NCBI GenBank assembly: GCA_963805855.1
Contig: CAWDVW010000002.1
Span: 544,001-608,000, forward strand
Direction: 5' to 3'
DNA length: 64,000 nt
Source: Candidatus Dadabacteria bacterium
GTDB lineage: Bacteria > Desulfobacterota_D > UBA1144 > Nemesobacterales > CSP1-2
In this document: in pieces, positions 15,226-27,432 of the stretch
Layout of the letters: the number at the start of each line of letters is the position of its first letter
Numbering within the stretch: position 1 is the first letter of the stretch
Translations under genes and position numbers: made by a program
Notes under the pieces: model-generated
The model's database searches: none
Told to the model about the DNA's origin: nothing
What the model saw: the letters and a program-made list of their open reading frames with translations, nothing else

Positions 15226-17199
15226 TCAGCCAGCAGAAATTACGATATAGACAATTATGGCTAGTGCGCCTATCGCCATCGCTGCCGCGTAGAACCTAAG
15301 CATGCCTGTTTGCGCAAATCTCAAGACAGAAGCAGTCCTGATAACAACGCCCGAAATTCCGTTTACAGCACCATCAATTATATTCACATCAAACCTAGCG
15401 GCGCTCTCTGAAATGCTGTTAAAAGGTCTTACAAAAATAGTATCGTATGTTTCATCTACAAACCACTTTGCATAGGAAAACCTATAGACGGTAGATACTA
15501 TATTACTCCTCATAAGACTCTGTACTGAAGCGGGATTTATTATATATAAGTAAATGGCAATCATAGCCCCAACAACCGCGGCAATTATTGATAATAATGT
15601 TGCACTCCAATGTCCCAGAAAATCATGCAGCGATGAGCCTATGTCTGTTAAATAAAGCGAGGGCGACAAGAAATCCTCGAAAATGTTTGAATGCGAGATG
15701 CCAACTACCTTGGCCATGAAATCAGGGACCCCTATATACCCGCCAAATATAGAAAGTAACGCAAGAACCAGAAGGGGAATTGTCATCGTGTACGGGGACT
15801 CATGAATATGACTCCTGATTGATTGAGAGACACGGGTGCTGCCCTCGAATGTGAGCAGATACAATCGAATCATGTATAATGCCGTTAAACCTACGGTGAA
15901 GAGTGCAATAAACCAGTGCACTATATAGCCTCTTTCGATCAAAGAAGCAAGAATCCCATCCTTACTATAAAACCCCGATAGGAGAGGAATTCCGGATATT
16001 GCAAGAGTACCAATAAGAAAGGTGTATGAAGTAAATGGAATGTACTTTCTCAACCCACCCATTTTCCTGACGTCCTGTTCGCCGGCAAGAGAATGAATTA
16101 CGCTACCTGAGCCCAAAAACAGCAAGGCCTTAAAAAATGCATGCATCACAAGATGAAAAATACCGGCAGCATAAGCCCCAACCCCAATTGCCATAAACAT
16201 GTAACCGAGCTGACTTATTGTCGAATAGGCGAGCACCTTCTTAATATCATTCTGAGTAATAGCGATAGAAGCTGCAAGCAATGCAGTAAAAGCGGCTATC
16301 GAGACCACCAGCATCTGAGCGGTAGGCGACTGTGTATAAAACGCACTACACCTTGCCATCATGTACGCACCAGCAGTAACCATCGTGGCAGCATGTATTA
16401 ATGCGCTAACAGGTGTAGGACCCGCCATGGCATCTGGGAGCCAGACATAGAGTGGGAACTGAGCAGATTTGCCAACCGCACCAATGAATAGAAGAAGTGC
16501 GATAACGGTAATTAGGACACCGGGAATGGCATTGATGAAAACGGGATCCACGGCTTTGCCGAAAACATCGGAAAAATTCGTCGACCCAAATACATAAAAA
16601 ACCAAGAATATACCGATTATGAATCCAAAGTCCCCTATTCTGTTTACAATAAAAGCCTTTTTACCAGCACGTGCCTTCTCATAATCTTCATACCAGAATC
16701 CTATCAGAAGATAGGATGCTAATCCCACACCCTCCCAACCCACAAACAAGAGCGGGAAATTGTTACCCAACACCAATACCAGCATAAAGAAAACAAAGCT
16801 ATTAAGATAAGTGAAATACCTCGAATAAGAGCGGTCATCGTGCATATACCCGATAGAATAGACATGTATTAAGAAGCTTACCCAGGATACTACAAGAGCC
16901 ATGACACATGAAAGGGGATCAAACAGAAACTCAATACTTACCGAAAAATCTCCTGAAGGAATCCATAAATATAGCTCCTGAACTAGTTGTCTATCCGAAG
17001 GGGACAGCCCTAGAAGACGAAGGAATAAGATCGAAGACAGTATTGCAGAGATAAAGATTACACCACATCCCAGAAAGCTGACAATCCTATTTTCTGTCTG
17101 TTCGTCCCCTCGAATAACCTTTTTCCAGAATCCGGAAGCAAACACTAAACCATTAATCGCTGCACCTATTAAAGGTGCTAGTATTATCCAAACAAGCAC
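15226..17199 (-). CDS. nuoL: NADH-quinone oxidoreductase subunit L
   Basis: GWEGVG, KAFIVNRIGD, GKSAQFPL.VWLPDAMAGPTPVSALIHAATMV, HAFFKALLF. Confidence 0.95.
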   Translation of the reverse strand: MLVWIILAPLIGAAINGLVFASGFWKKVIRGDEQTENRIVSFLGCGVIFISAILSSILFLRLLGLSPSDRQLVQELYLWIPSGDFSVSIEFLFDPLSCVMALVVSWVSFLIHVYSIGYMHDDRSYSRYFTYLNSFVFFMLVLVLGNNFPLLFVGWEGVGLASYLLIGFWYEDYEKARAGKKAFIVNRIGDFGFIIGIFLVFYVFGSTNFSDVFGKAVDPVFINAIPGVLITVIALLLFIGAVGKSAQFPLYVWLPDAMAGPTPVSALIHAATMVTAGAYMMARCSAFYTQSPTAQMLVVSIAAFTALLAASIAITQNDIKKVLAYSTISQLGYMFMAIGVGAYAAGIFHLVMHAFFKALLFLGSGSVIHSLAGEQDVRKMGGLRKYIPFTSYTFLIGTLAISGIPLLSGFYSKDGILASLIERGYIVHWFIALFTVGLTALYMIRLYLLTFEGSTRVSQSIRSHIHESPYTMTIPLLVLALLSIFGGYIGVPDFMAKVVGISHSNIFEDFLSPSLYLTDIGSSLHDFLGHWSATLLSIIAAVVGAMIAIYLYIINPASVQSLMRSNIVSTVYRFSYAKWFVDETYDTIFVRPFNSISESAARFDVNIIDGAVNGISGVVIRTASVLRFAQTGMLRFYAAAMAIGALAIIVYIVISAG

Positions 17200-17242
17200 G
17201 CTCTATTTACTCCTGTCCTTGAATGTTAACTTCATCAATGAT

Positions 17243-17548
17243 TTACCCTTTAAGCATTTTTAGAATATCGATATTAAGGCTCTCACGGTGCGTGTAAACC
17301 GAAACAACAAGGGCCAACCCTACAGCCACTTCAGCCGCAGCAACGGTTATTGACATTATCATGAATACCTGACCCGTCATGTCTCCGAGCACCTTCGAAA
17401 AGGCAACAAATGCAAGGTTTGCAGAATTGAGCATCAACTCTATCGACATGAGCACTATGATTATATTCTTCCGTGTGATGACACCAAAAGTGCCTATAAC
17501 AAATAGTATTGAGCTAAGGACAAGGTAGTGTTCAACGCCAGTTGTCAC
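17243..17548 (-). CDS. nuoK: NADH-quinone oxidoreductase subunit K
   Basis: 101 aa; MSIELMLN and AAAEVAVGLA. Confidence 0.95.
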   Translation of the reverse strand: MTTGVEHYLVLSSILFVIGTFGVITRKNIIIVLMSIELMLNSANLAFVAFSKVLGDMTGQVFMIMSITVAAAEVAVGLALVVSVYTHRESLNIDILKMLKG

Positions 17549-17549
17549 A

Positions 17550-18059
17550 CTAATTGAACCTCCTTTTGGCTATCGCCACCACCCCTATTATGGCAACTAC
17601 GATCAAGACCGATGTGAGCTCGAAGGGTAGAATGTAATCCTTGAATAAAACAGTCCCGACACCTTCCACTGTTCCAAACCGGTTATTCGAAATTGCTTCG
17701 GCGCCATTCAAAGCTAAGCCCTTGTTGAATGCTAGACTCGTTAAATAACCGACCACGACAAGTATCACCAATAAGACACCAAACCTGATAGGACTGTTTT
17801 GATAATCGAACCTGAGCGAGTCCTCATGGAGGTTTAGATACATCACGGTAAAGATAAAAAGCACTATTATCGCCCCGGCATAGACAAGGATCTGAATTGC
17901 GGCAATAAACTCAGCAAGGAGTAAGATAAAGAGCACCGCGGTGGAGAAAAGCGTAAGAACCAGTGACAGAGCACAAACCACGGGATTCCCGTGCGTAATA
18001 ACAAGAAGAGCCCCCGCCACGGATGCAGCGGCAAAAATGTAGAAAAGTATCGATTCCAA
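17550..18059 (-). CDS. nuoJ: NADH-quinone oxidoreductase subunit J
   Basis: AEFIAAIQILVYAGAIIVLF and YILPFELTS. Confidence 0.93.
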   Translation of the reverse strand: MESILFYIFAAASVAGALLVITHGNPVVCALSLVLTLFSTAVLFILLLAEFIAAIQILVYAGAIIVLFIFTVMYLNLHEDSLRFDYQNSPIRFGVLLVILVVVGYLTSLAFNKGLALNGAEAISNNRFGTVEGVGTVLFKDYILPFELTSVLIVVAIIGVVAIAKRRFN

Positions 18060-18342
18060 CTCAGCTTCGCCTCTGTGAATTAGTTAGACGAATGGTATCT
18101 GATAATGGGAAAAATTCAACCTCAAAAAATGTGGATATAGTGCCTAAACTTACTGCCGGAAAAATAAAATATTATAATGTCGTAATTTGACGGCCGATCC
18201 AGGATCAATGGATCGAGAGATAAATTTTGAATTGAAAATTTAATGAGAATCACATATATTTGATTCGCTTTCACCGGTATTTCTTTGAAATTTAATTTTC
18301 ATAATTGACTATCATCTTTGATTGAACTAAGGAGGCCCAAAT

Positions 18343-19104
18343 ATGAGACTCAAAGGCAAAACCGCTTTGATAACTGGTGGAGGTGAGGGAATTGGTAAAG
18401 CTACAGCCCTACTTTTTTGTAGAGAAGGGGCGAAGGTTGGGATTACTGGAAGAACCAAAAAGAAATTAGACCAGGTTGTAAGGGAGGCGAGAGGTAAAGG
18501 GGAAATTGTGGCTTTTTCCGGAGATGTATCGTCAGAAGCACACGTCAAAGATACAGTAAATAAGTTCCTAAAAAGATTTAAAAAAATTGACATACTGTTT
18601 AACAATGCCGGTGTGCTCGAAGCCGGAAATGTTTTGACGACCTCCGTGGATTCGTGGGACAAGACAATTGTCATAAACATCAAAGGTATGTTTTTGATGT
18701 CAAAATATGTAACACCACATATGATTAGAGATGGAGGAGGTTCAATAATAAATAACGCCTCGGTTTTAGGATTCATAGGTTGCGAAAATACTCTCGCGTA
18801 CAGCGCATCAAAAGGGGCTGTTATGCAGTTCACAAGAAGCATGGCGCTGGACCATGTAAAGCAGGGAATCAGGGTAAACACAATTTGCCCTGGTTTTATA
18901 AAAACTAAGATGAATGAAGATTTTATTGGGAACCCTCCTGATGCACAAAAACAACTGGATGAAGTAGCAGCAAAATTAGTACCGATGGGAATGCGCGGAG
19001 AGCCCATGGACATAGCATACGGCATCCTTTATCTTGCATCTGATGAGGCGAAATACGTCACGGGATCAAGCCTTGTTATCGACGGCGGTTGGACTGTTTA
19101 TTAA
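18343..19104 (+). CDS. Short-chain dehydrogenase/reductase (SDR)
   Basis: TGGGEGIG, NNAG, YSASK, IRVNTICPG and DGG motifs. Confidence 0.92.
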   Translation: MRLKGKTALITGGGEGIGKATALLFCREGAKVGITGRTKKKLDQVVREARGKGEIVAFSGDVSSEAHVKDTVNKFLKRFKKIDILFNNAGVLEAGNVLTTSVDSWDKTIVINIKGMFLMSKYVTPHMIRDGGGSIINNASVLGFIGCENTLAYSASKGAVMQFTRSMALDHVKQGIRVNTICPGFIKTKMNEDFIGNPPDAQKQLDEVAAKLVPMGMRGEPMDIAYGILYLASDEAKYVTGSSLVIDGGWTVY

Positions 19105-19136
19105 AACTAATTTTATTCCTAACGAACAAATGTCGG

Positions 19137-19817
19137 CTATCTGCTTTTTACCACACCTATTTTCTCGCATAACTGTTCAACGGGGCATTCGGTGCACTTT
19201 GGAGAAATGGGTCGGCAAACAGTTTGTCCAAAGGCGACCAGGAGGCTGTTATAATCTATCCAGTATTTTCTTGGAAGCTTTTCCCTTAAGACCATTTCGG
19301 TTTCAAAAGGCGTCTTTGTTTCTATAAACCCCCATCGATTCGAAATCCTGTGGACATGCGTGTCAACGCAAACTCCAGGTTTTCCGTATCCCAGGGTCAC
19401 AACCAGGTTAGCAGTCTTTCTTCCGACACCTTTTAGCTTGAGAAGCTCATCGATCTCATCGGGAACCCTGGAATCATATTTTTCAATCAGAGTCTTGCAA
19501 ACGTCTCTTATAATCTTTGCCTTGGTCCTATAGAATCCCACGGGGTAAATTGCCTTTTCAATCTGCCTTGAACTAATCGCAAGCATATCCGATGGGTTAT
19601 TAGCCATCTTAAATAATCTTCCAGAAGCGCTACTAGTAGTCTCATCCTTTGTTCTAAGGCTGAGAATAGTCGATATCAAAACCTTAAATGGATCACGACT
19701 TCTCTCAGCCGTATGTGTAACGGAGGGCATTTTCCACCTTTTGTATTCTCTTTTTAAGATGGCAATAATCTTAGGAATATCTCGTGTTTTAAATCTTCCC
19801 ATTTTCCGACTGATCAA
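19137..19817 (-). CDS. nth: Endonuclease III
   Basis: HhH LKGVGRKTAN, VDTHVHR and a C-x6-C-x2-C-x5-C Fe-S loop. Confidence 0.93.
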   Translation of the reverse strand: MISRKMGRFKTRDIPKIIAILKREYKRWKMPSVTHTAERSRDPFKVLISTILSLRTKDETTSSASGRLFKMANNPSDMLAISSRQIEKAIYPVGFYRTKAKIIRDVCKTLIEKYDSRVPDEIDELLKLKGVGRKTANLVVTLGYGKPGVCVDTHVHRISNRWGFIETKTPFETEMVLREKLPRKYWIDYNSLLVAFGQTVCRPISPKCTECPVEQLCEKIGVVKSR

Positions 19818-19913
19818 TTTTTGTTTTGACGAAATACAGAACCATACATAAAAGTTGTGATATGAAAATTTACTGCAATCAAAGTTTGGCGATACTAGCG
19901 GCTTCTTACCCGT

Positions 19914-20705
19914 TTATTTGCACTCATGAGTGGACTCCTTCGCCAATTTTATAGCGCTATCTAGTCCTTTTTGGAAATAATCAAAATGCTCATCTAAAAA
20001 ATCGAGATATGCTTTTCTCTTTGTTATTAGTTCTTCTATACTTTCTGGCTTATCGGGCCTATATTTTTCAAGTATTAACATGAAATATTGTGTGAATGAC
20101 CCAATTATATGGTCAACAACGTTTCTCAAACCCTCACTATACTTGGCTTCAATCTCTTTCAGTTTGGTATCGTTTAGTTGCTTAAGAGACTTGAAATTTT
20201 CATTGCTTACAATGTCCGGCCCTTTATTTTGTATCGCCCTAATGACGGATTGGAAATCTAATTTTTTTATTTTCAATTCAAAGGCTAAATACAAAAAGTG
20301 GGCTAATCTATCCCAAGCACTAGCTAACAATCGAATCCCATAATCAATATTGTACCAAAACATAAAATCATCATAAGTTTGTTGATTCGTATGCTTAAAA
20401 TCACATGTAAGCGGTAAAAAATATTCAGCTGATGAAATAGAAACCGCAATAGTCAAGCGAATGTGTCTTATCTCCTCATAAACGTAATCAATTCTATACT
20501 TTTCAGTTACTTCAAATGGGTGCTGACCCGATAATTGAGGAAGTGGCTTACCCTCAGCTAGGTATACCACTTTCTCTAATTCTGCTTGTTTATCTCTCGT
20601 TTTTTGTATTGCTTCAAAATAAGACTGTGTAAAATTAGTCGAATCAGAGAGTAACCCCGGATATTTTTGCTCTAGTATGTTGAAAATAGCACTACTGTAT
20701 TTCAT
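19914..20705 (-). CDS. Putative HEPN-domain protein (Cthe_2314-like)
   Basis: Helical protein with S-A-W-D-R-L and R-N-V-V-D-H (Rx4H) motifs; AT-rich; start overlaps the upstream stop (ATGA). Family assignment is inference. Confidence 0.55.
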   Translation of the reverse strand: MKYSSAIFNILEQKYPGLLSDSTNFTQSYFEAIQKTRDKQAELEKVVYLAEGKPLPQLSGQHPFEVTEKYRIDYVYEEIRHIRLTIAVSISSAEYFLPLTCDFKHTNQQTYDDFMFWYNIDYGIRLLASAWDRLAHFLYLAFELKIKKLDFQSVIRAIQNKGPDIVSNENFKSLKQLNDTKLKEIEAKYSEGLRNVVDHIIGSFTQYFMLILEKYRPDKPESIEELITKRKAYLDFLDEHFDYFQKGLDSAIKLAKESTHECK

Positions 20706-21703
20706 TTATTCCTAATATTAATTAGGTTGACAATAACCTTAATTATTGTTTCTTTCTCTTCGGGTTTACTGACCGCAATCATGAGTGTAAGAGCGACTAA
20801 TGCATTATCTGCAATACGCTTTGTACCATCATCTCTGTAAAGCAAGCCATTTTTTTCTAAGAACCAAATAAAGATAAAGGCGGCTATTCTCTTATTGCCA
20901 TCAACAAAAGAATGGTTTTTTACAATAAAATAAAGCAAATTAGCCGCTTTTTCTTCGATACTGGGATAGAGTTCGCGGCCATCAAAGGTTTGGTATATAG
21001 TGTCCAAAGAACTTCTGAAGGATTGATCTTTCTCTTTGCCAAATAGTTCGGATGCGCTGTAAGTTCCTCTTAGTCTATTTATTGCCTGGATCGCCTCTTC
21101 ATATTTAATACTGAATCTTTCTCTTCTTTCCGTATCCTTAATTTCCAGTTTTTGATGATCATATTTGTCTAATACGTCGAAGGCATAACTATAATCGTTA
21201 ATTAAATTTATGAGTGCTAAGGCCTCATCTGAACTCTAGTGCTTTTTGATCTGAAACAGTTCCTATAAGTCTTATTGTATTTTTTAAGTCTTCTAATTGA
21301 CTTTCCTTTTCTCTCAGCCGTCTTTCGTTTAATGAATAGCCCTTAACGAGATGGTCTCTTAACACATTTGTTGTCCAGATTCGAAATTGAGTACCTCGTT
21401 GGGATTTTACTCTGTAACCTACGGAAATTATTACATCTAAGTTGTAATGAATCTATATCTCTCTTTATTGTTCTTCCACCTTCTCTTTGAACTGTTGCAA
21501 ATTTTGCAACAGTTGAACTTTGATCTAATTCTCCCTCCGCAAATATATTGCGAACATGTCTAGATACCACGGACTTATACTCTTTGAAATAACTCGACCA
21601 TCTGGCTAAGAGAAAGCCATGCAGTATCTTGCTGGAGATTAACTTCAAGCTTCGTTTCCCCATCTTCGGTTTGATATATAACTACCTCAGATTTATTTTC
21701 CAT
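20702..21703 (-). pseudogene. RhuM-family/Fic-Doc fusion, interrupted by about 3 single-base frameshifts (real or sequencing error)
   Basis: Frames join into MENKSEVVIYQTEDG...WLSLSQMVELF / SVVSRHVRNIFAEGEL..STVAKFATVQ / YNLDVIISVGYRVKSQRGTQFRIW / ...YPSIEEKAANLLYFIVKNHSFVDGNKRIA. Shifts near 21578, 21451 and 21236. Confidence 0.85.
21490..21514. repeat. Perfect intragenic palindrome (12-bp arms plus 1 nt) in rhuM
   Basis: AACTGTTGCAAA-T-TTTGCAACAGTT. Confidence 0.9.
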
Positions 21704-21717
21704 GGTTGAATATTCTT

Positions 21718-21854
21718 TCAACTATCGAAAAATACGCGACAGTTGAGTTTATTTCAGTTATTGCAAAATTTGCAACAGTTGGATCTTTCCGAGTTGTTCG
21801 ATATCTTCGAACAGTTCAATTCGTTCACTTGTCTGGAAATTCCGGACAACTCAT
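21718..21854. repeat. Array of four variant 25-bp palindromes at 36/36/35-bp period upstream of rhuM-fic
   Basis: Cores at 21720-21744, 21756-21780, 21792-21816 and 21827-21851, all alignable to the intragenic palindrome. Confidence 0.85.
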
Positions 21855-22229
21855 TTTGTTGAGATATTTTTCCTAACTTCCTATTTTGGGATAAGCGTCA
21901 AAAGTTATTCAAATATTATAATATTTGAGCGTGCTTTGTGCTAGTTTTTGAAATTTAGCGTCCCTATTGGATACAGTCCTGCAAAATCTGTCGCTGTATC
22001 TCCCTTCTATTATAGAAGCAGTTTCTCTTGAGAAGTATATTTAGAGCTTAATGTTTTACTCGTCCGTGAACTATTACATATAAGATGTATGATTCGGAAC
22101 GAAACAAAATTACAAGAAGTAAGTGAACGTAATGGCCTTATCGTTTTTGATATAATTGGCACCAATACCAAAACATTCCTTAGTGACAATTCGACCAGGT
22201 TATTTGATACATTAAAAAGGGATTATTTG

Positions 22230-22410
22230 GCCTTCCAAAAATTGCGTCAAGAAAATGAAAATTGCGATTGTCATTTCGACCACAAGGAGAAATCTTTCCT
22301 TTCTCTTTGTTTCCTGACTTAACTACTAGATCTCTCACATCCGTTCGAGATGACAGCGTTTGGACAGCCTTGATTTTTGCTTCTTTGTATCAAGACAAAG
22401 AAGTCAAAAA
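22230..22410 (+). repeat. Degenerate copy of the ~230-bp MITE/REP-like element
   Basis: Shares TGTCAT...ATGACA hairpin and GCCTTGATTTTTGCTTCTTTGTATCAAGACAAAGAA end with the 32728 copy. Confidence 0.5.
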
Positions 22411-22446
22411 GAAGAGTAAGATAAATAGACAAAAAACGATGTCAAT

Positions 22447-23652
22447 TTATTGATAGGCTTCGATCATACTCTTAAGGATCGTTCCGGAAGATGAATTCTT
22501 AATCTTCTCAAGTGCGCTTTTCTCAATCTGCCTTATCCGTTCCCTAGTGAGGCTGAATCTTTTCCCAACCTCGTCCAGCGTTAAGGCGTTTTCATACCCA
22601 ATCCCAAATCTCATTTTAACCACCTCTCGTTCCCTGGTATTCAGCTCTGAGAGGGCGGCCTCTAGGCTTTTTGGGAGCGATGCAGCCGTAATTAGAGAAT
22701 CCGCAGGTACTGATTTTGGATCTGCAAAGACATCGATAAAGCTCATGTTTTGCCCTTGGAGGGTTGTGTCGAGGCTCAATACCTTATCGTTATCCCCAAG
22801 AACCCAGCTAATATTCGCCTCAGACATCTTCGCTTTATCGGCCACCTCCTTATTCAGAGGCCGTCTCCCCATCTCTTTCGCAAGATCATTCCGTATTCTC
22901 CTGATCTTACTTGATTTTTCAAGCACATACGCAGGCACGCGTACGGTTTTTCCGTGAGTAAATGAAGCCCTTAAAATAGATTGGGTTATCCACCAACTGG
23001 CATATGTAGAGAACCTGTAGCCTCTCTTGTAATCAAATTTCTCGACAGCCTTTATCAACCCCAAATTTCCCTCTTGCAGAAGATCCAAATAGGGTATCCC
23101 CCTTCCAATATATTTTCTGGCGATGCTTGCAACGAGCCTCAAATTGGATTTGATAAATCGGTTTCTCAGCTCCGTCGCCTTTAGATTATTTGCTTCCAGA
23201 AGGTTGAAGAGTCTTTCCAGACGTTTAGCTAATTTCTCATTTTCATCTATCCTGCTTCTATTATTCAGCATATTACGTAATTCACGTATAGCCCGGTCTC
23301 CATTATTACCGAGTCTTCGGCCTATAATCCCCTCGATTGTCTTAAGAATCTTCTCCGACCTTGATTCACATCTTTCGATTTTTGAGGCAATTTCAATCTC
23401 CTCACTAGGTTTGAGGAGTGGTTCTAAACCGACTTCTTTAAAATATGAATTAACTAACCTCAAATCCTGATCCTGAACCTGTTTCTTACTGGTTGTGCTT
23501 TCGCTTTCCGAAATTCCATCGGTTCCCTGATGAGAAATCTCCTCATTCCCATCATCGGAATCCACATCTGAAGGCAACCCGGCGACAGTCTCAGTGTCCA
23601 CCGTGCTGTAATCAACTGTTAAATAGTAATTTTTTGTCTTTTCCATAATCAT
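22447..23652 (-). CDS. RNA polymerase sigma70 factor, RpoD/RpoS-like (probably non-primary)
   Basis: NLRLVASIA, DLLQEGNLGLIKAVEKFD, RFSTYASWWI and LTRERIRQIE; no obvious region 1.1. Confidence 0.88.
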   Translation of the reverse strand: MIMEKTKNYYLTVDYSTVDTETVAGLPSDVDSDDGNEEISHQGTDGISESESTTSKKQVQDQDLRLVNSYFKEVGLEPLLKPSEEIEIASKIERCESRSEKILKTIEGIIGRRLGNNGDRAIRELRNMLNNRSRIDENEKLAKRLERLFNLLEANNLKATELRNRFIKSNLRLVASIARKYIGRGIPYLDLLQEGNLGLIKAVEKFDYKRGYRFSTYASWWITQSILRASFTHGKTVRVPAYVLEKSSKIRRIRNDLAKEMGRRPLNKEVADKAKMSEANISWVLGDNDKVLSLDTTLQGQNMSFIDVFADPKSVPADSLITAASLPKSLEAALSELNTREREVVKMRFGIGYENALTLDEVGKRFSLTRERIRQIEKSALEKIKNSSSGTILKSMIEAYQ

Positions 23653-23978
23653 CTTCTCTCTAATGACTTATGATGTAATATTGAGGTATTGGATGCAGGA
23701 ATATTGAAAACCCTTCTAGCTTCATTAAACCATAAAAATTTCTTAAAGTTTCAATTACACGTCTTTAGAACCTGAATTAATCTTTCAATTTTATGACTGA
23801 ATTACTGTTCTCTAGGCTGAACGCTAATGAAGATATTGTGAGGATCAACACTACTAGATAGGAAAACTCTTTTGTTTTTAACCGGTTAGCAACACCGGAC
23901 TAACCCGTGACCGCGATCAAGATGACACAATCTTGGGTATCGGGTTCCAATTCAGCGTGGAATTATTAGATGAATATA

Positions 23979-24761
23979 TTACTGGATGGTGGTCCTTTCC
24001 GGATCACCAGAAGCTTTACGCCTTATATCATCCCATTTTTGGGTTAACATATTAAGCCTCGAATCAGCATCCGCGATCTTCCCCCCTCTCAAGAGTGTTA
24101 ATACCTCCCACAGATCCTTCACCGAATTCTCATTACGTATTGTATAAGGATGAATGAAAGAACATAGTTCTCCATAATTAAGAACCACAGATCCGGAAGG
24201 GTCAAATCCGGATAGAAGTGAATAGACCTTCCTCATACCTGCCCTAATATCGGCCAATTTATTTGATAATTGAGAACTTGACTCGTGCTTGTCTATGACA
24301 GAGCCTATAACCTTTTCTGCTTCTTTCAGTCTCCCGAGGCCTGCGTCAAGTTTAGTATCGTAGCTTATCGCATTGAATCCCCAATGTGTATAGAGGATTT
24401 TTCGCTCCTCTTCCCGAAATATAACAAACCAGTGAAGTGGGATAATATTTTCAGAAACGAAGATATGCGACTGACCCTTCGACCCTAAAGGCGCAATATA
24501 ATATCTCCCACTTTCGTCCTTCATGAAAAAACAATCTTCTATCTGGTCCTCCAACATATCAAGATTTGATGAAATTGCCTTTCTGAAGCTCTCGTACTCA
24601 TTTCCAAACCAAACCCCGAAAGGTGACGTCGGTCCGCCCCAATACTTTTCGTAAAAATCTATGTATGAAAGCCAGTAGTCGCTTTTATCTCCAAAATTCT
24701 CGACAGCTTCATACAGTATCAATGTGCTGTTTGCCATCGATATTAATATATCAAATCTCAC
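23979..24761 (-). CDS. Hypothetical protein
   Basis: 260-aa uninterrupted ORF; start may be the ATG at 24737. Confidence 0.65.
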   Translation of the reverse strand: MRFDILISMANSTLILYEAVENFGDKSDYWLSYIDFYEKYWGGPTSPFGVWFGNEYESFRKAISSNLDMLEDQIEDCFFMKDESGRYYIAPLGSKGQSHIFVSENIIPLHWFVIFREEERKILYTHWGFNAISYDTKLDAGLGRLKEAEKVIGSVIDKHESSSQLSNKLADIRAGMRKVYSLLSGFDPSGSVVLNYGELCSFIHPYTIRNENSVKDLWEVLTLLRGGKIADADSRLNMLTQKWDDIRRKASGDPERTTIQ

Positions 24762-24896
24762 AGAAAAACATAATATCTATGCCAAAATATATGTTTAATA
24801 CAGTTATCCTTCAAACAGGACAATTCCAGAAGCCGGCCGATCGTGAATGAAAGAAACCAATTGACAAGCACTTAACAAAAGTCGTAATATCATGGG

Positions 24897-25616
24897 GTGG
24901 CCGAATTGACTCTCGAGAAATTGATTAAAAAGGCAAAAAGGAAAAAGATTGACTTGGGGCCGGACCCAGCAAAGACGATAAGGGTTTGCGTGAAGCTCGG
25001 GCTTATTTCAAAACCCAAGAGACGGATTTCAAGAATAAACAACGGCAAAAAAACCACATATTATTACCCCGACAATACTCTAGATAAATTAGAACATATA
25101 AAGGCCCTCAAATCAGAAGGCATCTCTCTGGAAGAGATCAGAGAAAGCTTTGCCCTTGTGTACGTTCAAACCGCTCTTCATGATCTTATCCGCCAGGCTG
25201 ATGATGAAAAAATCGGACAACTTGCTCAAATAATCGGAAGCAAGGATAAGGAACTAGAGGCCATAGTACAGGCGCCGCTTATCTATGTAATAGAGGGTAT
25301 GTCCCAGGAAGAAGCAAAAAAGATTCTTACCCTATTCTGCGGAGTAGGTTTTTATGCGCTTCTGGAGGCCGAGGAGGAATTGGAAAAACTGAAGTTTAAC
25401 GAAGCCAGGAAAGCACTATCCAAAGCGATTTTTTATAATTCTATCGCAGTATTAAGACTGGCACGCACTACAGGTGACACAAAGCTGGAAGCTTCAGCCA
25501 CAGATGTTTATGAAAAGGTTGTTCTTGAACCAATCAGAAAGGCGACTGAGAATGTTAGGAAAGAATTCAAAAAATCGATCGATAAGTATCTGAGGGAAAA
25601 GGGGTTAAAGATTTAA
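24897..25616 (+). CDS. MerR-like HTH protein with unknown helical C-terminus
   Basis: KTIR...GLI.KP.R...YY...L..I..LK.EG.SLEEIRE matches the MerR HTH pattern. Confidence 0.65.
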   Translation: MAELTLEKLIKKAKRKKIDLGPDPAKTIRVCVKLGLISKPKRRISRINNGKKTTYYYPDNTLDKLEHIKALKSEGISLEEIRESFALVYVQTALHDLIRQADDEKIGQLAQIIGSKDKELEAIVQAPLIYVIEGMSQEEAKKILTLFCGVGFYALLEAEEELEKLKFNEARKALSKAIFYNSIAVLRLARTTGDTKLEASATDVYEKVVLEPIRKATENVRKEFKKSIDKYLREKGLKI

Positions 25617-25658
25617 CCCACCGGAATAGAGAAGGATTTTCCCAATTACCATGTAAAC

Positions 25659-25910
25659 TTACAACCGCTTACCGATGCACTCCGCTATGCTATCTATGTT
25701 TTCAAGAAGGCTCTGATTAATATCTTCCTCGTCAATACTTATTTTAAACTCGGATTCCAATGCCACAATCAGTTCCAAAGTGGCTACCGAATCAACACCA
25801 ACACCCAGCTCTATTAGAGGGGTATCATCCTTAATTTCTGACGGATCAACTTCGGATAACATTTTTTCAATCAATACTTTCCTGATTCTACTATTTACAG
25901 TCTCTTTCAT
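25659..25910 (-). CDS. Acyl carrier protein
   Basis: 83-aa acidic protein with GVDSV phosphopantetheine motif. Confidence 0.85.
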   Translation of the reverse strand: MKETVNSRIRKVLIEKMLSEVDPSEIKDDTPLIELGVGVDSVATLELIVALESEFKISIDEEDINQSLLENIDSIAECIGKRL

Positions 25911-25959
25911 TGTATCAAGCCTTAAAAGCTACCATCAAACACTCTTACTTGGAATACAC

Positions 25960-27432
25960 CTACTTTAACAACTCAATAACCACTTTACCCGTCGGGCCCC
26001 TAGGTATCGTTTGTCTGAATTCAATTTTGCTTGGAATCTTAAAATCAGCAATTTTGCCCCGACAAAATTCATAAATCTCCTTGGCTGTTAAATCGGCCTT
26101 TGGAACTATTACCGCCTTTACCACCTCATTCCCCTCACTATCACTCACACCGAAAACCACCACTTCCTTTACCTTCGAATGGCCTGAAATTTGATGTTCA
26201 ACCTCCCTTGGATTCACCTTATTTCCACTGATATTTATAAACATCTTTTTTCTGCCCACAATTCTGATATATCCATCTTTATCCATAGTTCCCAAATCAC
26301 CGGTATGATAATATCCATTCCTAAACACGCTCATTGTATCCTGCGGAAGGTTCTTATAACCACTAATCATTGAACTACTCTTAACAGCTATTTCCCCCTC
26401 CTCGCCCGCTCCAACTACCGAACCATCTTCCCTAACAATCTGAACGTCCACATTTTTTACCGGTCTCCCAACTGAATCAAAGTTAACTTCAATATCCTGC
26501 GATAGATTTATGGCAATCACACCTGTCTCGGTTGACCCATACAGTTGCCTTGGATAAATTCCAAATTTTTCATGGAATCGATAGAAAACTTCTTTTGATA
26601 GTGGAGAACCGGCGGAAATGACCAATTTGAGAGACGAAAAATCTCTGGGCTTTGGAAGATAGGTTTTCGCTAATACATCGAGCATAAACGGGACTGCCGG
26701 GAAAATAGTTATTGCTTCACCTTCGATCATATCAATGACCCTATTCCTGTTGAAAGAGCTCAAAACATAAAGGGTAGCACCAACCTTTATACCACTGATA
26801 AAATTTCCAAGCGCGTACGTATGCGAAAGTGGAACGACGAATAGTATCTTATCATCCTCTGCCCAACCGACGGTCTGAGTATGATTTTCAGCAAGAGCAT
26901 TAAGATTCAGATGACTCCTTGCCACACACTTGGGTTTAGCGGTGGTACCGGTTGAATAGAGATAAATTGCCTCATCATCGGGTATTAGGTCATGTTTGAT
27001 CTTACTTGAAACTCCATTACTGCAATATGAATAGTCTGTTATGGCCCCTCTTATGACCAATACGGATGCGCCGGCCTCATCGGCAGATTTTTCGGCCATA
27101 GGTCTTAACGTTTCTTCAGTAAGTATAATGCGCGGGGCAGAGTCTGAGATATAATATTCAAGTTCTGTTTCCTTATAGGCGGTATTTAAGGGAACTGAAA
27201 TAGCACCAATTTCAAGCACACTAAAGAAGCTAGTTATGAACTCAAGCGAGTTAGGTAGTAAAATCGCAACCCTGTCACCATGACCAACCCCCTTTGATAC
27301 AAGAAACGAGCTTAGATCTTGTACCATAGATAAAAGGGTCCCATAGGTAATCCTTTTTTGTCCGTCTACAACCGCAATTCCTTCGGAATTCGCCTTTGCT
27401 GAATGTTTAAACAAATCTGGAACTACTTTCAT
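25960..27432 (-). CDS. AMP-dependent acyl-CoA/acyl-ACP ligase (class I adenylate-forming)
   Basis: YSTGTTAKPK, YGSTE, YHTGDLG, GRKK and GPTGK motifs. Confidence 0.9.
   Translation of the reverse strand: MKVVPDLFKHSAKANSEGIAVVDGQKRITYGTLLSMVQDLSSFLVSKGVGHGDRVAILLPNSLEFITSFFSVLEIGAISVPLNTAYKETELEYYISDSAPRIILTEETLRPMAEKSADEAGASVLVIRGAITDYSYCSNGVSSKIKHDLIPDDEAIYLYSTGTTAKPKCVARSHLNLNALAENHTQTVGWAEDDKILFVVPLSHTYALGNFISGIKVGATLYVLSSFNRNRVIDMIEGEAITIFPAVPFMLDVLAKTYLPKPRDFSSLKLVISAGSPLSKEVFYRFHEKFGIYPRQLYGSTETGVIAINLSQDIEVNFDSVGRPVKNVDVQIVREDGSVVGAGEEGEIAVKSSSMISGYKNLPQDTMSVFRNGYYHTGDLGTMDKDGYIRIVGRKKMFINISGNKVNPREVEHQISGHSKVKEVVVFGVSDSEGNEVVKAVIVPKADLTAKEIYEFCRGKIADFKIPSKIEFRQTIPRGPTGKVVIELLK

Follow-up and report, generated by a model that had tools for sequence, protein, structure and literature searches.

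The window analysed here, a stretch of 64,000 nt from a Candidatus Dadabacteria genome (assembly GCA_963805855.1, contig CAWDVW010000002.1, positions 544,001 to 608,000), carries a rhuM gene fused to one of the Doc type, and a perfect palindrome lies within the codons of its RhuM part. Comparison with rhuM loci from many phyla leaves next to no doubt that this intragenic dyad is under selection at the level of the DNA itself, and it is probably recognised by the very protein that it helps to encode, judging from the covariation between the site and the predicted recognition helix. On balance, and with moderate confidence, we favour the reading that the dyad is a self-recognised site of RhuM, extra operator-like copies of which lie upstream of the gene in this window.

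The dyad occupies positions 21490..21514 and has the sequence AACTGTTGCAAA-T-TTTGCAACAGTT. The preliminary description of this DNA, made from its letters alone, had called it a perfect 12-1-12 palindrome inside rhuM, and so it is: a 23-nt dyad pattern matches with 0 mismatches where 0 matches were expected from 100 shuffles, and its 15-nt arms are 93% complementary. Across the family the symmetry takes the form 10-5-10. Read on the minus strand the site encodes S-T-V-A-K-F-A-T-V-Q, here numbered p1 to p10, of which T-V-A-K-F-A-T-V are residues of the predicted wing strand. A covariance model built solely from the rhuM dyads of other genomes scores it at 37.7 bits. No further copies of the dyad were found in the 3.1-Mb genome, and the idea of a dispersed repeat was rejected.

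The site was followed through eight rhuM loci from related genomes and 80 loci from many phyla, the latter being the best 80 of 590 relatives among 600 candidate stretches; the RhuM family PF13310 is present in 8 of 61 related genomes, the window's own included. A dyad was found at the same position of the gene in all 89 rhuM loci examined. In 87 of these it follows one fixed, gap-free register, and in the remaining two (L024 and L028) there is a perfect dyad shifted by a few nucleotides. Across the 87 loci the 10-bp arms are Watson-Crick paired in 831 of 870 cells and two-sided changes were seen at all ten arm pairs, so that the palindromic codons with covarying arms that were to be looked for in homologues were indeed found. 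Standard pairs fill 96.7% of cells in a 36-column alignment, against 66.1 ± 1.0 in 500 shuffles, none of which reached the observed value, whilst sliding the partners gives 18-42%. Four pairs consist purely of third codon positions, and these are Watson-Crick in 85, 76, 83 and 85 of the 87 genes. When each protein was kept and its codons drawn from the gene's own usage, 1000 resamplings gave 117.9 ± 8.2 paired third positions with a maximum of 152, compared with the 325 of 344 observed. In 323,019 bases there are 130 windows in which 9 or more of the 10 positions pair, where shuffles give 13.7. The canonical site accounts for 87 of the 130, and some ten others are sites of this kind that lie outside genes or in neighbouring paralogues.

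Residues p1 to p10 vary in pairs: p4/p7 are A/A, R/R, K/L, S/E or E/S, p3/p8 are V/T, C/Q, C/H, I/I or T/V, and p2/p9 are T/V or V/T. The variability of this segment among RhuM homologues (VAKFAT- and VRKFRT-like forms), put forward in the preliminary description, is borne out by this alignment. Because the dyad must stay Watson-Crick, the wing peptide can change solely by pairs of reverse-complement codons (A/A, R/R, K/L, S/E, V/T, C/Q, I/I), and it is apparently the DNA site that sets its sequence. In an RNA hairpin formed by the sense strand, G·U would be much less harmful than A·C, but the 39 mismatched arm cells in the 87 loci comprise 11 G·T, 15 A·C and 13 others. As G·T is not commoner than A·C, the mismatches speak for a double-stranded DNA site, or for a process that affects both strands alike, and not for a sense-strand hairpin.

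The residues that covary with the inner base pairs of the dyad precede an invariant histidine, 14 codons upstream of p1. In the window they belong to the codons K-S-V-V-S-R-H (21556..21576, minus strand, frame 0), the start of the predicted recognition helix as placed from an AlphaFold2 (AF2) model of the homologue L063; Ser is at position h-2 and Arg at h-1, followed by the histidine. Among the 87 genes, R..R (CGG/CCG) is the dyad type in 32 of the 33 with Glu at h-1, A..A (GCA/TGC) in all 7 with Arg, S..E (TCC/GGA) in 9 of the 10 with Lys, and K..L or E..S in all 29 with Leu, Ile or Met. At h-2, Thr or Val accompanies C(Q/H) (TGT/ACA) 21 times out of 22, Asn accompanies Ile-containing pairs (ATT/AAT) 15 times out of 16, and Ser accompanies V..T 35 times out of 46. 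Only columns h-8 to h-1 show high mutual information with the dyad, which reaches 1.69 of 2.07 bits between h-1 and p4/p7 and, against p3/p8, 1.74 bits for h-6 and 1.34 for h-2, of 2.65. Tandem rhuM pairs within 1-1.5 kb are frequent (L013, L021, L050, L053 and L073), and the copies always differ in dyad, each fitting its own helix.

Independent contrasts were counted on a tree built without the helix and dyad columns. For RR with Glu, 11.9 contrasts run the same way and 0 the opposite way, of 13 (p 0.0005); the corresponding figures are 10.0 and 0 of 13 for KL/ES with Leu/Ile/Met/Val, 6.9 and 0 of 7 for SE with Lys, 5.5 and 0 of 6 for AA with Arg, 10.0 and 0.4 of 11 for Cys with Thr/Val, 10.1 and 0.1 of 13 for VT with Ser, and 5.3 and 0.3 of 7 for II with Asn. 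No association was seen in five of six cross-controls (h-1 against p3/p8, h-2 against p4/p7, and p2/p9 against either). Both a dyad-symmetric site and its covariation with the helix, as would mark a winged-helix repressor and its operator, are therefore present.

An AF2 model of residues 1-148 of L063 (mean predicted local distance difference test score (pLDDT) 78, with 88-97 in the core) has, in order, three short strands, a helix at 38-44, a second at 49-61 that includes His55, and a beta hairpin at 71-80/83-93. According to this model the RhuM N terminus would be a winged helix-turn-helix: the covarying residues are positions 1, 2, 5 and 6 of the helix, and the dyad of L063 encodes residues 69-78, the first strand of the wing. 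The earlier suggestion of operators, with RhuM binding the DNA that encodes its own variable segment, is supported once modified. The dyad does covary with a recognition helix and the peptide lies in the first wing strand as modelled, but the predicted reading head is the helix about 15 codons upstream and not the variable peptide. A homodimer model scored 0.71 against 0.00 for the best of three controls, a modelled value and not a measurement; in calibration, 20 of 30 solved pairs and 1 of 23 single chains attained the mark. Its runs agree in at least 70% of contacts, with a partner pLDDT of at least 67, and the modelled interface (residues 94-135 and 62-65) leaves the helix and wing free. 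The model supports a RhuM dimer short of demonstrating it, and we infer that the dyad is bound in that form.

The association between helix and site does not depend on the frame in which the site is read. Beside the rhuM gene of L037 lies a Bro-N gene with the same kind of site and the same outer arms (L037:3042-3077) in another frame, encoding Q-L-Y-E-I-I-V-Q-L; this copy, with its in-frame stop, may be a pseudogene. The Bro-N subfamily is widespread, with more than 8000 matches. Amongst 80 metagenome loci sampled from it (L125-L204), 64 could be anchored, and in these the arms of a 10-5-10 site are Watson-Crick in 617 of 640 cells. The residue aligned with h-1 follows the inner bases over 42 distinct combinations: CGA accompanies 20 of 21 Asp, CCA all 7 Ala and TAC all 12 Val. 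CG at half-site positions 8-9 thus accompanies an acidic residue in both families, whether the site encodes R..R, as in RhuM, or E..I, as in Bro-N. The Bro-N profile PF02498 scores 14 bits (E 0.078) on the RhuM N terminus against a cut-off of 25.6, and it is an alignment by eye together with the shared dyad that links the families. Likewise L024 and L028, with the helix ..TINEH, keep the half-site ATTCGG though their shifted frame encodes F-G..S-E. That the same acidic-to-CG rule holds under different encoded residues argues against a contact between helix and wing purely within the protein.

Two E. coli genes from outside the sample also fit the code. The selC-linked rhuM of L205 has the helix VRTINEH and the site ATCCGG..CCGGAT, and that of L206, linked to a type I restriction-modification (RM) system, has QAITQH and TGTAAG..CTTACA. 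A rhuM-like DNA match is present in 922 of 5426 complete E. coli genomes. The L205 gene (NZ_CP043181.1) directly adjoins tRNA-Sec (selC), which we take to be the place of rhuM in Salmonella pathogenicity island 3 (SPI-3) as well; another E. coli copy was seen at a type I RM locus next to mobI.

Upstream of the window gene are four variant units of the dyad, which had been reported as an array with a period of about 36 bp. This array is real by three measures, namely a repeat family (21713-21748, 21749-21784 at 72% and 21820-21855 at 61%, with an internal copy at 69%), an inverted repeat at U3, and Tandem Repeats Finder (TRF; period 36 over 21705-21781, 2.1 copies, 75% matches). The unit starts are 36, 36 and 35 bp apart. 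U1 (21720..21744) lies 17 nt upstream of the ATG, scores 16.1 bits by the covariance model and has a decayed, GCA/TGC-related inner motif with 7 of 10 positions Watson-Crick. U2 (21756..21780) scores 21.8 bits, with three mismatches to the dyad pattern and 7 of 10 pairs; its inner 17 nt are identical to the intragenic site, and its outer arms are of two different classes. U3 (21792..21816) is a partial match of 9.2 bits with 8 of 10 pairs and the non-cognate, R..R-type inner motif GTTCGA/TCGAAC, whilst U4 (21827..21851) scores 19.5 bits and has a CGG/CCG-like R..R inner motif, again with 8 of 10 pairs. The best hit of the model elsewhere in the window is 12.0 bits, which U2, U4 and U1 all exceed. 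Of the ten arm positions in the units that are not Watson-Crick, five pair as G·T on the plus strand. As an observation in its own right, U4 followed by CTCATTTTGT (21829-21859, plus strand) fits the pattern of an intrinsic terminator on the strand opposite rhuM.

The resident helix, ..K-S-V-V-S-R-H, predicts the site GTTGCA..TGCAAC, which is that of the intragenic dyad and of the inner part of U2, and nearly that of U1 in G001, a genome of the same genus. These motifs agree with the suggestion of an array that serves several allelic specificities: the GCA/TGC of U1 and U2 matches the resident ..SRH, and the CGA/CGG-type motifs of U3 and U4 belong in other RhuMs with Glu. In G001 the orthologous four-unit array stands before a rhuM remnant from which an internal deletion has removed the intragenic dyad, running from about codon 20 to the 'DHLV.GY' region (L095, G001:C89, 1430-1700); the same deletion form occurs in contigs of the sequencing runs X3 and X6. 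There U1 has 9 of 10 Watson-Crick pairs plus one G·T, U2 has 9 of 10, U3 is decayed, and the arms of U4 are identical to those in the window.

The preliminary description had asked whether variant copies recur upstream of other rhuM genes. Extra non-coding copies do occur in 6 of the 88 other loci (L063, L034, L046, L021, L026 and L037), but none of the 88 has an array. Such copies share the gene's own inner motif in L063, L046 and L026, as they do at U1 and U2 of the window, and lack it in L034 and L021. In L034 (747-782) an hsdS-like frame (..LLPKLLSGEL..) crosses the non-cognate orphan dyad and ends just before the rhuM ribosome-binding site, whilst in L021 a short hsdR-like N-terminal reading frame runs into the orphan. 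A '-10' noted by eye beside the L063 orphan was dropped, as a promoter scan of that locus found nothing. Further orphans in the genomes G080 and G058 (L093, L096, L113 and L118) are intergenic, near vapBC-like, higBA-like and XRE/ImmA-like genes, with no matching RhuM or Bro-N reader in these genomes; the arms of one orphan in G058 are nevertheless those of the rhuM dyad found 46 kb from it. A search for RhuM N-domain and Bro-N proteins revealed no readers beyond the known rhuM genes in G000 and G058, and none for U3/U4-type sites in the window genome.

In the mechanism that we propose, a RhuM dimer would recognise the intragenic dyad through its recognition helix, and RhuM-Doc would occupy both this site and the upstream units, acting from an operator before the gene and as a roadblock inside it. 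Occupancy would lower transcription of rhuM-Doc and of the HEPN gene behind it, so that a toxin-like, single-gene defence candidate could be kept at a very low level whatever promoter context receives the gene. The array of the window would be an accessory operator cluster, partly cognate (U1 and U2), partly foreign (U3 and U4) and partly decayed, its units lying after the presumed promoter region and before the start codon. That autoregulation is the purpose of the binding is a tentative proposal, on which we are close to evenly divided, and a role of the upstream units as operators likewise falls just short of an even case.

Several observations weigh against the self-recognised site, in whole or in part. 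The 80 main loci are the best matches to one query alignment of four sequences, and so form a biased sample. The helix codons lie 40-60 nt from the dyad, and linkage contributes to the raw association; all tested positions are equally linked on the DNA, so linkage alone fails to explain the modular pattern, and it is countered by the cross-controls and by the frame-shifted cases, yet the latter number only two in RhuM. In the sixth cross-control, RR with Asn at h-2, there is a weak lean in the direction of the associations (4.1 against 0.3 of 13; p 0.125). A Foldseek search of the PDB with the RhuM N-domain gave no match at E <= 0.001, and VIA matches are middling, with Z at most 7.1; those at 7.1, 6.2 and 6.1 are to DNA-binding winged-helix-like domains, amongst them the baculovirus Orf22 N-domain (7.1) and the pSK1 Par DNA-binding domain on DNA (6.1), with the Mbp1 APSES domain at 5.6. 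With regard to the array, U3 and U4 carry the non-cognate motifs just described, U1 and U2 are less symmetric in the window than in G001, where rhuM is deleted, and the 36-bp spacing is not in helical phase. A scan for consensus promoters found none on the rhuM-Doc strand in the window. Orphan sites occur in G080 and G001, though neither a RhuM N-domain nor a Bro-N protein was found in either. Lastly, copies with a gene's own arms were found within 700 nt upstream in 5 of 82 loci, against a non-cognate background of 3.2%; as upstream copies are rare the array is not general, and control by promoter operators cannot be the role of the site across the family.

The array may instead serve no purpose today and be what is left, in a state of decay, of 36-bp pieces of rhuM alleles that were duplicated or captured, so that the intragenic site alone would matter. 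This is possible, if rather unlikely, and is compatible with an intragenic self-recognised operator. Consistent with it, the units are only 61-72% alike, U1 and U2 are decayed in the window and U3 in G001, the flanks of U1 are still gene-like (..V-E-R-I compared with ..V-Q-R-E), no array was found upstream of the other 88 loci, and the array persists in the G001 lineage in spite of the rhuM deletion there. However, free decay after duplication would not leave 7-8 of 10 Watson-Crick pairs around inner motifs that differ on both arms. The identity of the U4 arms in two species, and the scores of three units above everything else in 64 kb under a model from other genomes, also tell against it.

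A second alternative retains binding of the dyad by RhuM but gives it another purpose. The effector would be held inactive on its own gene and released by loss of or damage to that DNA, or by competing incoming DNA, forming a single-gene addiction or abortive-infection switch; we consider this distinctly unlikely. In a version that seems no less doubtful, RhuM would be a single-gene conflict module with its own DNA as antidote, the effector (the RhuM C-terminal part or Doc) being silent while the winged helix occupies the dyad, and unleashed by gene loss or by foreign DNA, either carrying the same dyad or competing for it. The pairs of helix and dyad would then be private 'keys' preventing cross-talk between co-resident copies, a corollary that we hold to be just as improbable. 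Such a switch would suit a site that is inseparable from its gene, lying inside it at all 89 loci, with upstream copies rare. RhuM and RhuM-Doc are also the PADLOC single-gene defence candidates PDC-S05 and PDC-S23, and RhuM has been proposed as a toxin domain in RM-linked defence loci (PMC3710099).

Dyads of the E. coli RhuM types also occur in a P7-like phage-plasmid (L207:645, 827 and 2502; three places in 98 kb, E <= 0.0022) and in a lambdoid prophage (L208:~2001-2026), a further point in favour of the switch. They lie inside DUF551-like or hypothetical phage genes, in N-Y-P..P-D linkers read in a third frame, and at an intergenic early-left spot. A 40-nt query made from the site matched E. 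coli plasmids at 405 places, and a query with the copy carried by the phage-plasmid itself matched 267 phage records. However, the matches in phages sit in a conserved protein motif, the DUF551-like N-Y-P..P-D, and shared ancestry may explain many of them, whilst the second E. coli site type was present in only 8 phage records, so that there is no general phage-targeting pattern. Nor is a trigger known, and one site per chromosome holds one dimer, so extremely low expression would be needed.

It is also conceivable, but highly improbable, that the dyad is a structural DNA element, such as a hairpin or cruciform or a feature of recombination or replication, the arms of which co-evolve by intrastrand template switching, and that the covariation of helix and wing reflects contacts within the protein (Glu-Arg and Lys-Glu salt bridges). 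Templated correction would be expected to give just such strict Watson-Crick symmetry without tolerance of G·T, and the chemistry of h-1 seems to complement that of p4/p7 (E with R/R, K with S/E, L with K/L). The persistence of orphan copies without a reader is also in keeping with this, as is the enrichment of RhuM genes beside programmed inversions (PMC9881135). It is at odds with the acidic-to-CG rule, which holds in the Bro-N frame (E..I) and in L024 and L028 (F-G..S-E), and with the position of the covarying residues on the modelled helix. Contacts of this kind would also have to accommodate the null result of five of six cross-controls, the remaining one leaning only weakly, and the tandem paralogues with different dyads that each match their own helix.

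The units and dyad had further been suggested to be RNA hairpins, either a ToxI-like antitoxin array or an mRNA structure controlling the Doc and HEPN effectors, which we now regard as barely credible. The 36-nt period is the same as that of ToxI, U4 is terminator-like on the plus strand and, if G·U is allowed on that strand, U3 pairs at 10 of 10 arm positions and U2 and U4 at 9 of 10. But G·T is not favoured over A·C in the 87 genes, the units lack the near-identity of ToxIN-like tandem repeats, and covariation with a DNA-binding helix has no place in such a scheme. No ToxN/AbiQ-type endoribonuclease was found downstream of the array, where the genes match Fic/Doc and HEPN_Cthe2314, and an Rfam scan of 20500-22500 gave no match, only two sub-threshold chance hits. 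As little can be said for a micro-shufflon, in which the units would be silent cassettes or recombination sites swapping the variable peptide: the outer arms of U2 and U3 are of two classes, as after a crossover between sites, and the L034 and L021 orphans stand at junctions with truncated hsdS- or hsdR-like frames, but contigs of four runs (which drop rare forms) contain no joints between the dyad and the units, no recombinase open reading frame (ORF) was apparent within about 4 kb (ORFs of 17000-26000, of which only 7 were run against Pfam), the dyads of the 87 genes are symmetric and not hybrid, and a swap would uncouple dyad from matching helix.

A self-recognised site in rhuM has partial parallels in known systems. 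In autoregulated toxin-antitoxin and abortive-infection modules such as Phd/Doc and AbiEi, the promoter carries inverted repeats to which a (winged) helix-turn-helix part of the module itself binds. The window locus resembles these in its Doc-family effector, its DNA-binding domain and its repeated, dyad-symmetric sites before the gene; it differs in that the DNA-binding part of rhuM-Doc is fused to the effector, and in that the principal, universal site of rhuM lies inside the coding sequence of the DNA-binding domain, upstream copies being the exception. Another parallel is ParB/Spo0J, where a parS site lies within the spo0J gene. RhuM too would be a helix-turn-helix protein with a palindromic site in its own gene, protein and site travelling together. 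Unlike ParB, it has no ParB or CTPase domain (Pfam matches in three RhuM proteins were to RhuM and Fic, with weak Bro-N and winged-helix hits), and its site, in contrast to parS of spo0J, is in the codons of the DNA-binding domain, fixed in position across phyla and diversifying with the recognition helix.

The controller (C) proteins of RM systems bind C-boxes upstream of their gene. With these, RhuM would share a helix-turn-helix regulator and a palindromic operator, in mobile RM operons of which rhuM is often a part (PMC3710099, PMC9881135). RhuM differs from these small regulators and their upstream C-boxes in having its site inside the gene and in its large effector domain. Type III toxin-antitoxin systems of the ToxIN kind have 36-nt ToxI repeats, and the window likewise has repeats with a 36-bp period directly upstream of a toxin-like gene; in contrast to ToxIN these are diverged, with no ToxN-type RNase and no sign of selection at the level of RNA. 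Rickettsia palindromic elements (RPEs) are mobile, in-frame palindromic inserts found at varied positions. Like them the rhuM dyad is read through as protein, with a DNA constraint shaping the peptide, but its position is the same in all 89 genes and it varies in step with the helix of the protein itself.

RhuM is very common and essentially uncharacterised, being found in RM operons and defence islands. It has been put forward as a toxin domain that is frequently joined to Doc in RM loci (PMC3710099). Its genes are typically embedded in RM operons (PMC3710099, PMC9881135) and enriched next to programmed inversions (PMC9881135), and in the streptococcal RhuM-Fic protein BifA the effects on host cells do not require the RhuM part (PMC6529018). 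No description of DNA binding by RhuM, or of the rhuM dyad, was found in the literature searched, which did not extend to supplements. The present analysis assigns RhuM a candidate molecular activity, sequence-specific DNA binding, on the basis of sequence comparison, and a two-position recognition code would allow the target of each RhuM to be predicted from its protein sequence. Where a binding site is in the codons of the domain that would read it, that part of the protein evolves only by reverse-complement codon pairs, an unusual constraint found here in two families and two frames.

The rhuM-Doc gene of the window (20702..21703, minus strand) combines an N-terminal part, predicted to be the winged-helix portion of RhuM, with a C-terminal Fic/Doc part. 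The former places it in the RhuM family, with a PF13310 match of 75.9 bits against a cut-off of 33.7 that covers profile positions 8-85 only. The C-terminal part matches Fic (PF02661, E 1.6e-11), a match to DOC_P1 (TIGR01550) is also present, and the protein matches the PADLOC candidate PDC-S23 with an E value of 2.9e-75; judged by these profiles it is a RhuM-N/Doc fusion like that candidate. The reading frame is broken three times in the window assembly. Contigs of three public runs (X1, X2 and X3) differ from the window by one-base indels at 21579, 21449 and 21237, exactly at the breaks; hence the gene is probably intact in nature, and the breaks are likely to be assembly errors or strain-specific. 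Indel errors in this assembly are probable and may affect other genes of the same genome too. Behind rhuM-Doc on the same strand lies the HEPN gene (19914..20705), which is Cthe_2314-like, with 27.3 bits for PF18730, where the cut-off is 27.1. A 4-nt overlap between its start and the stop of rhuM-Doc makes co-transcription of the two genes probable.

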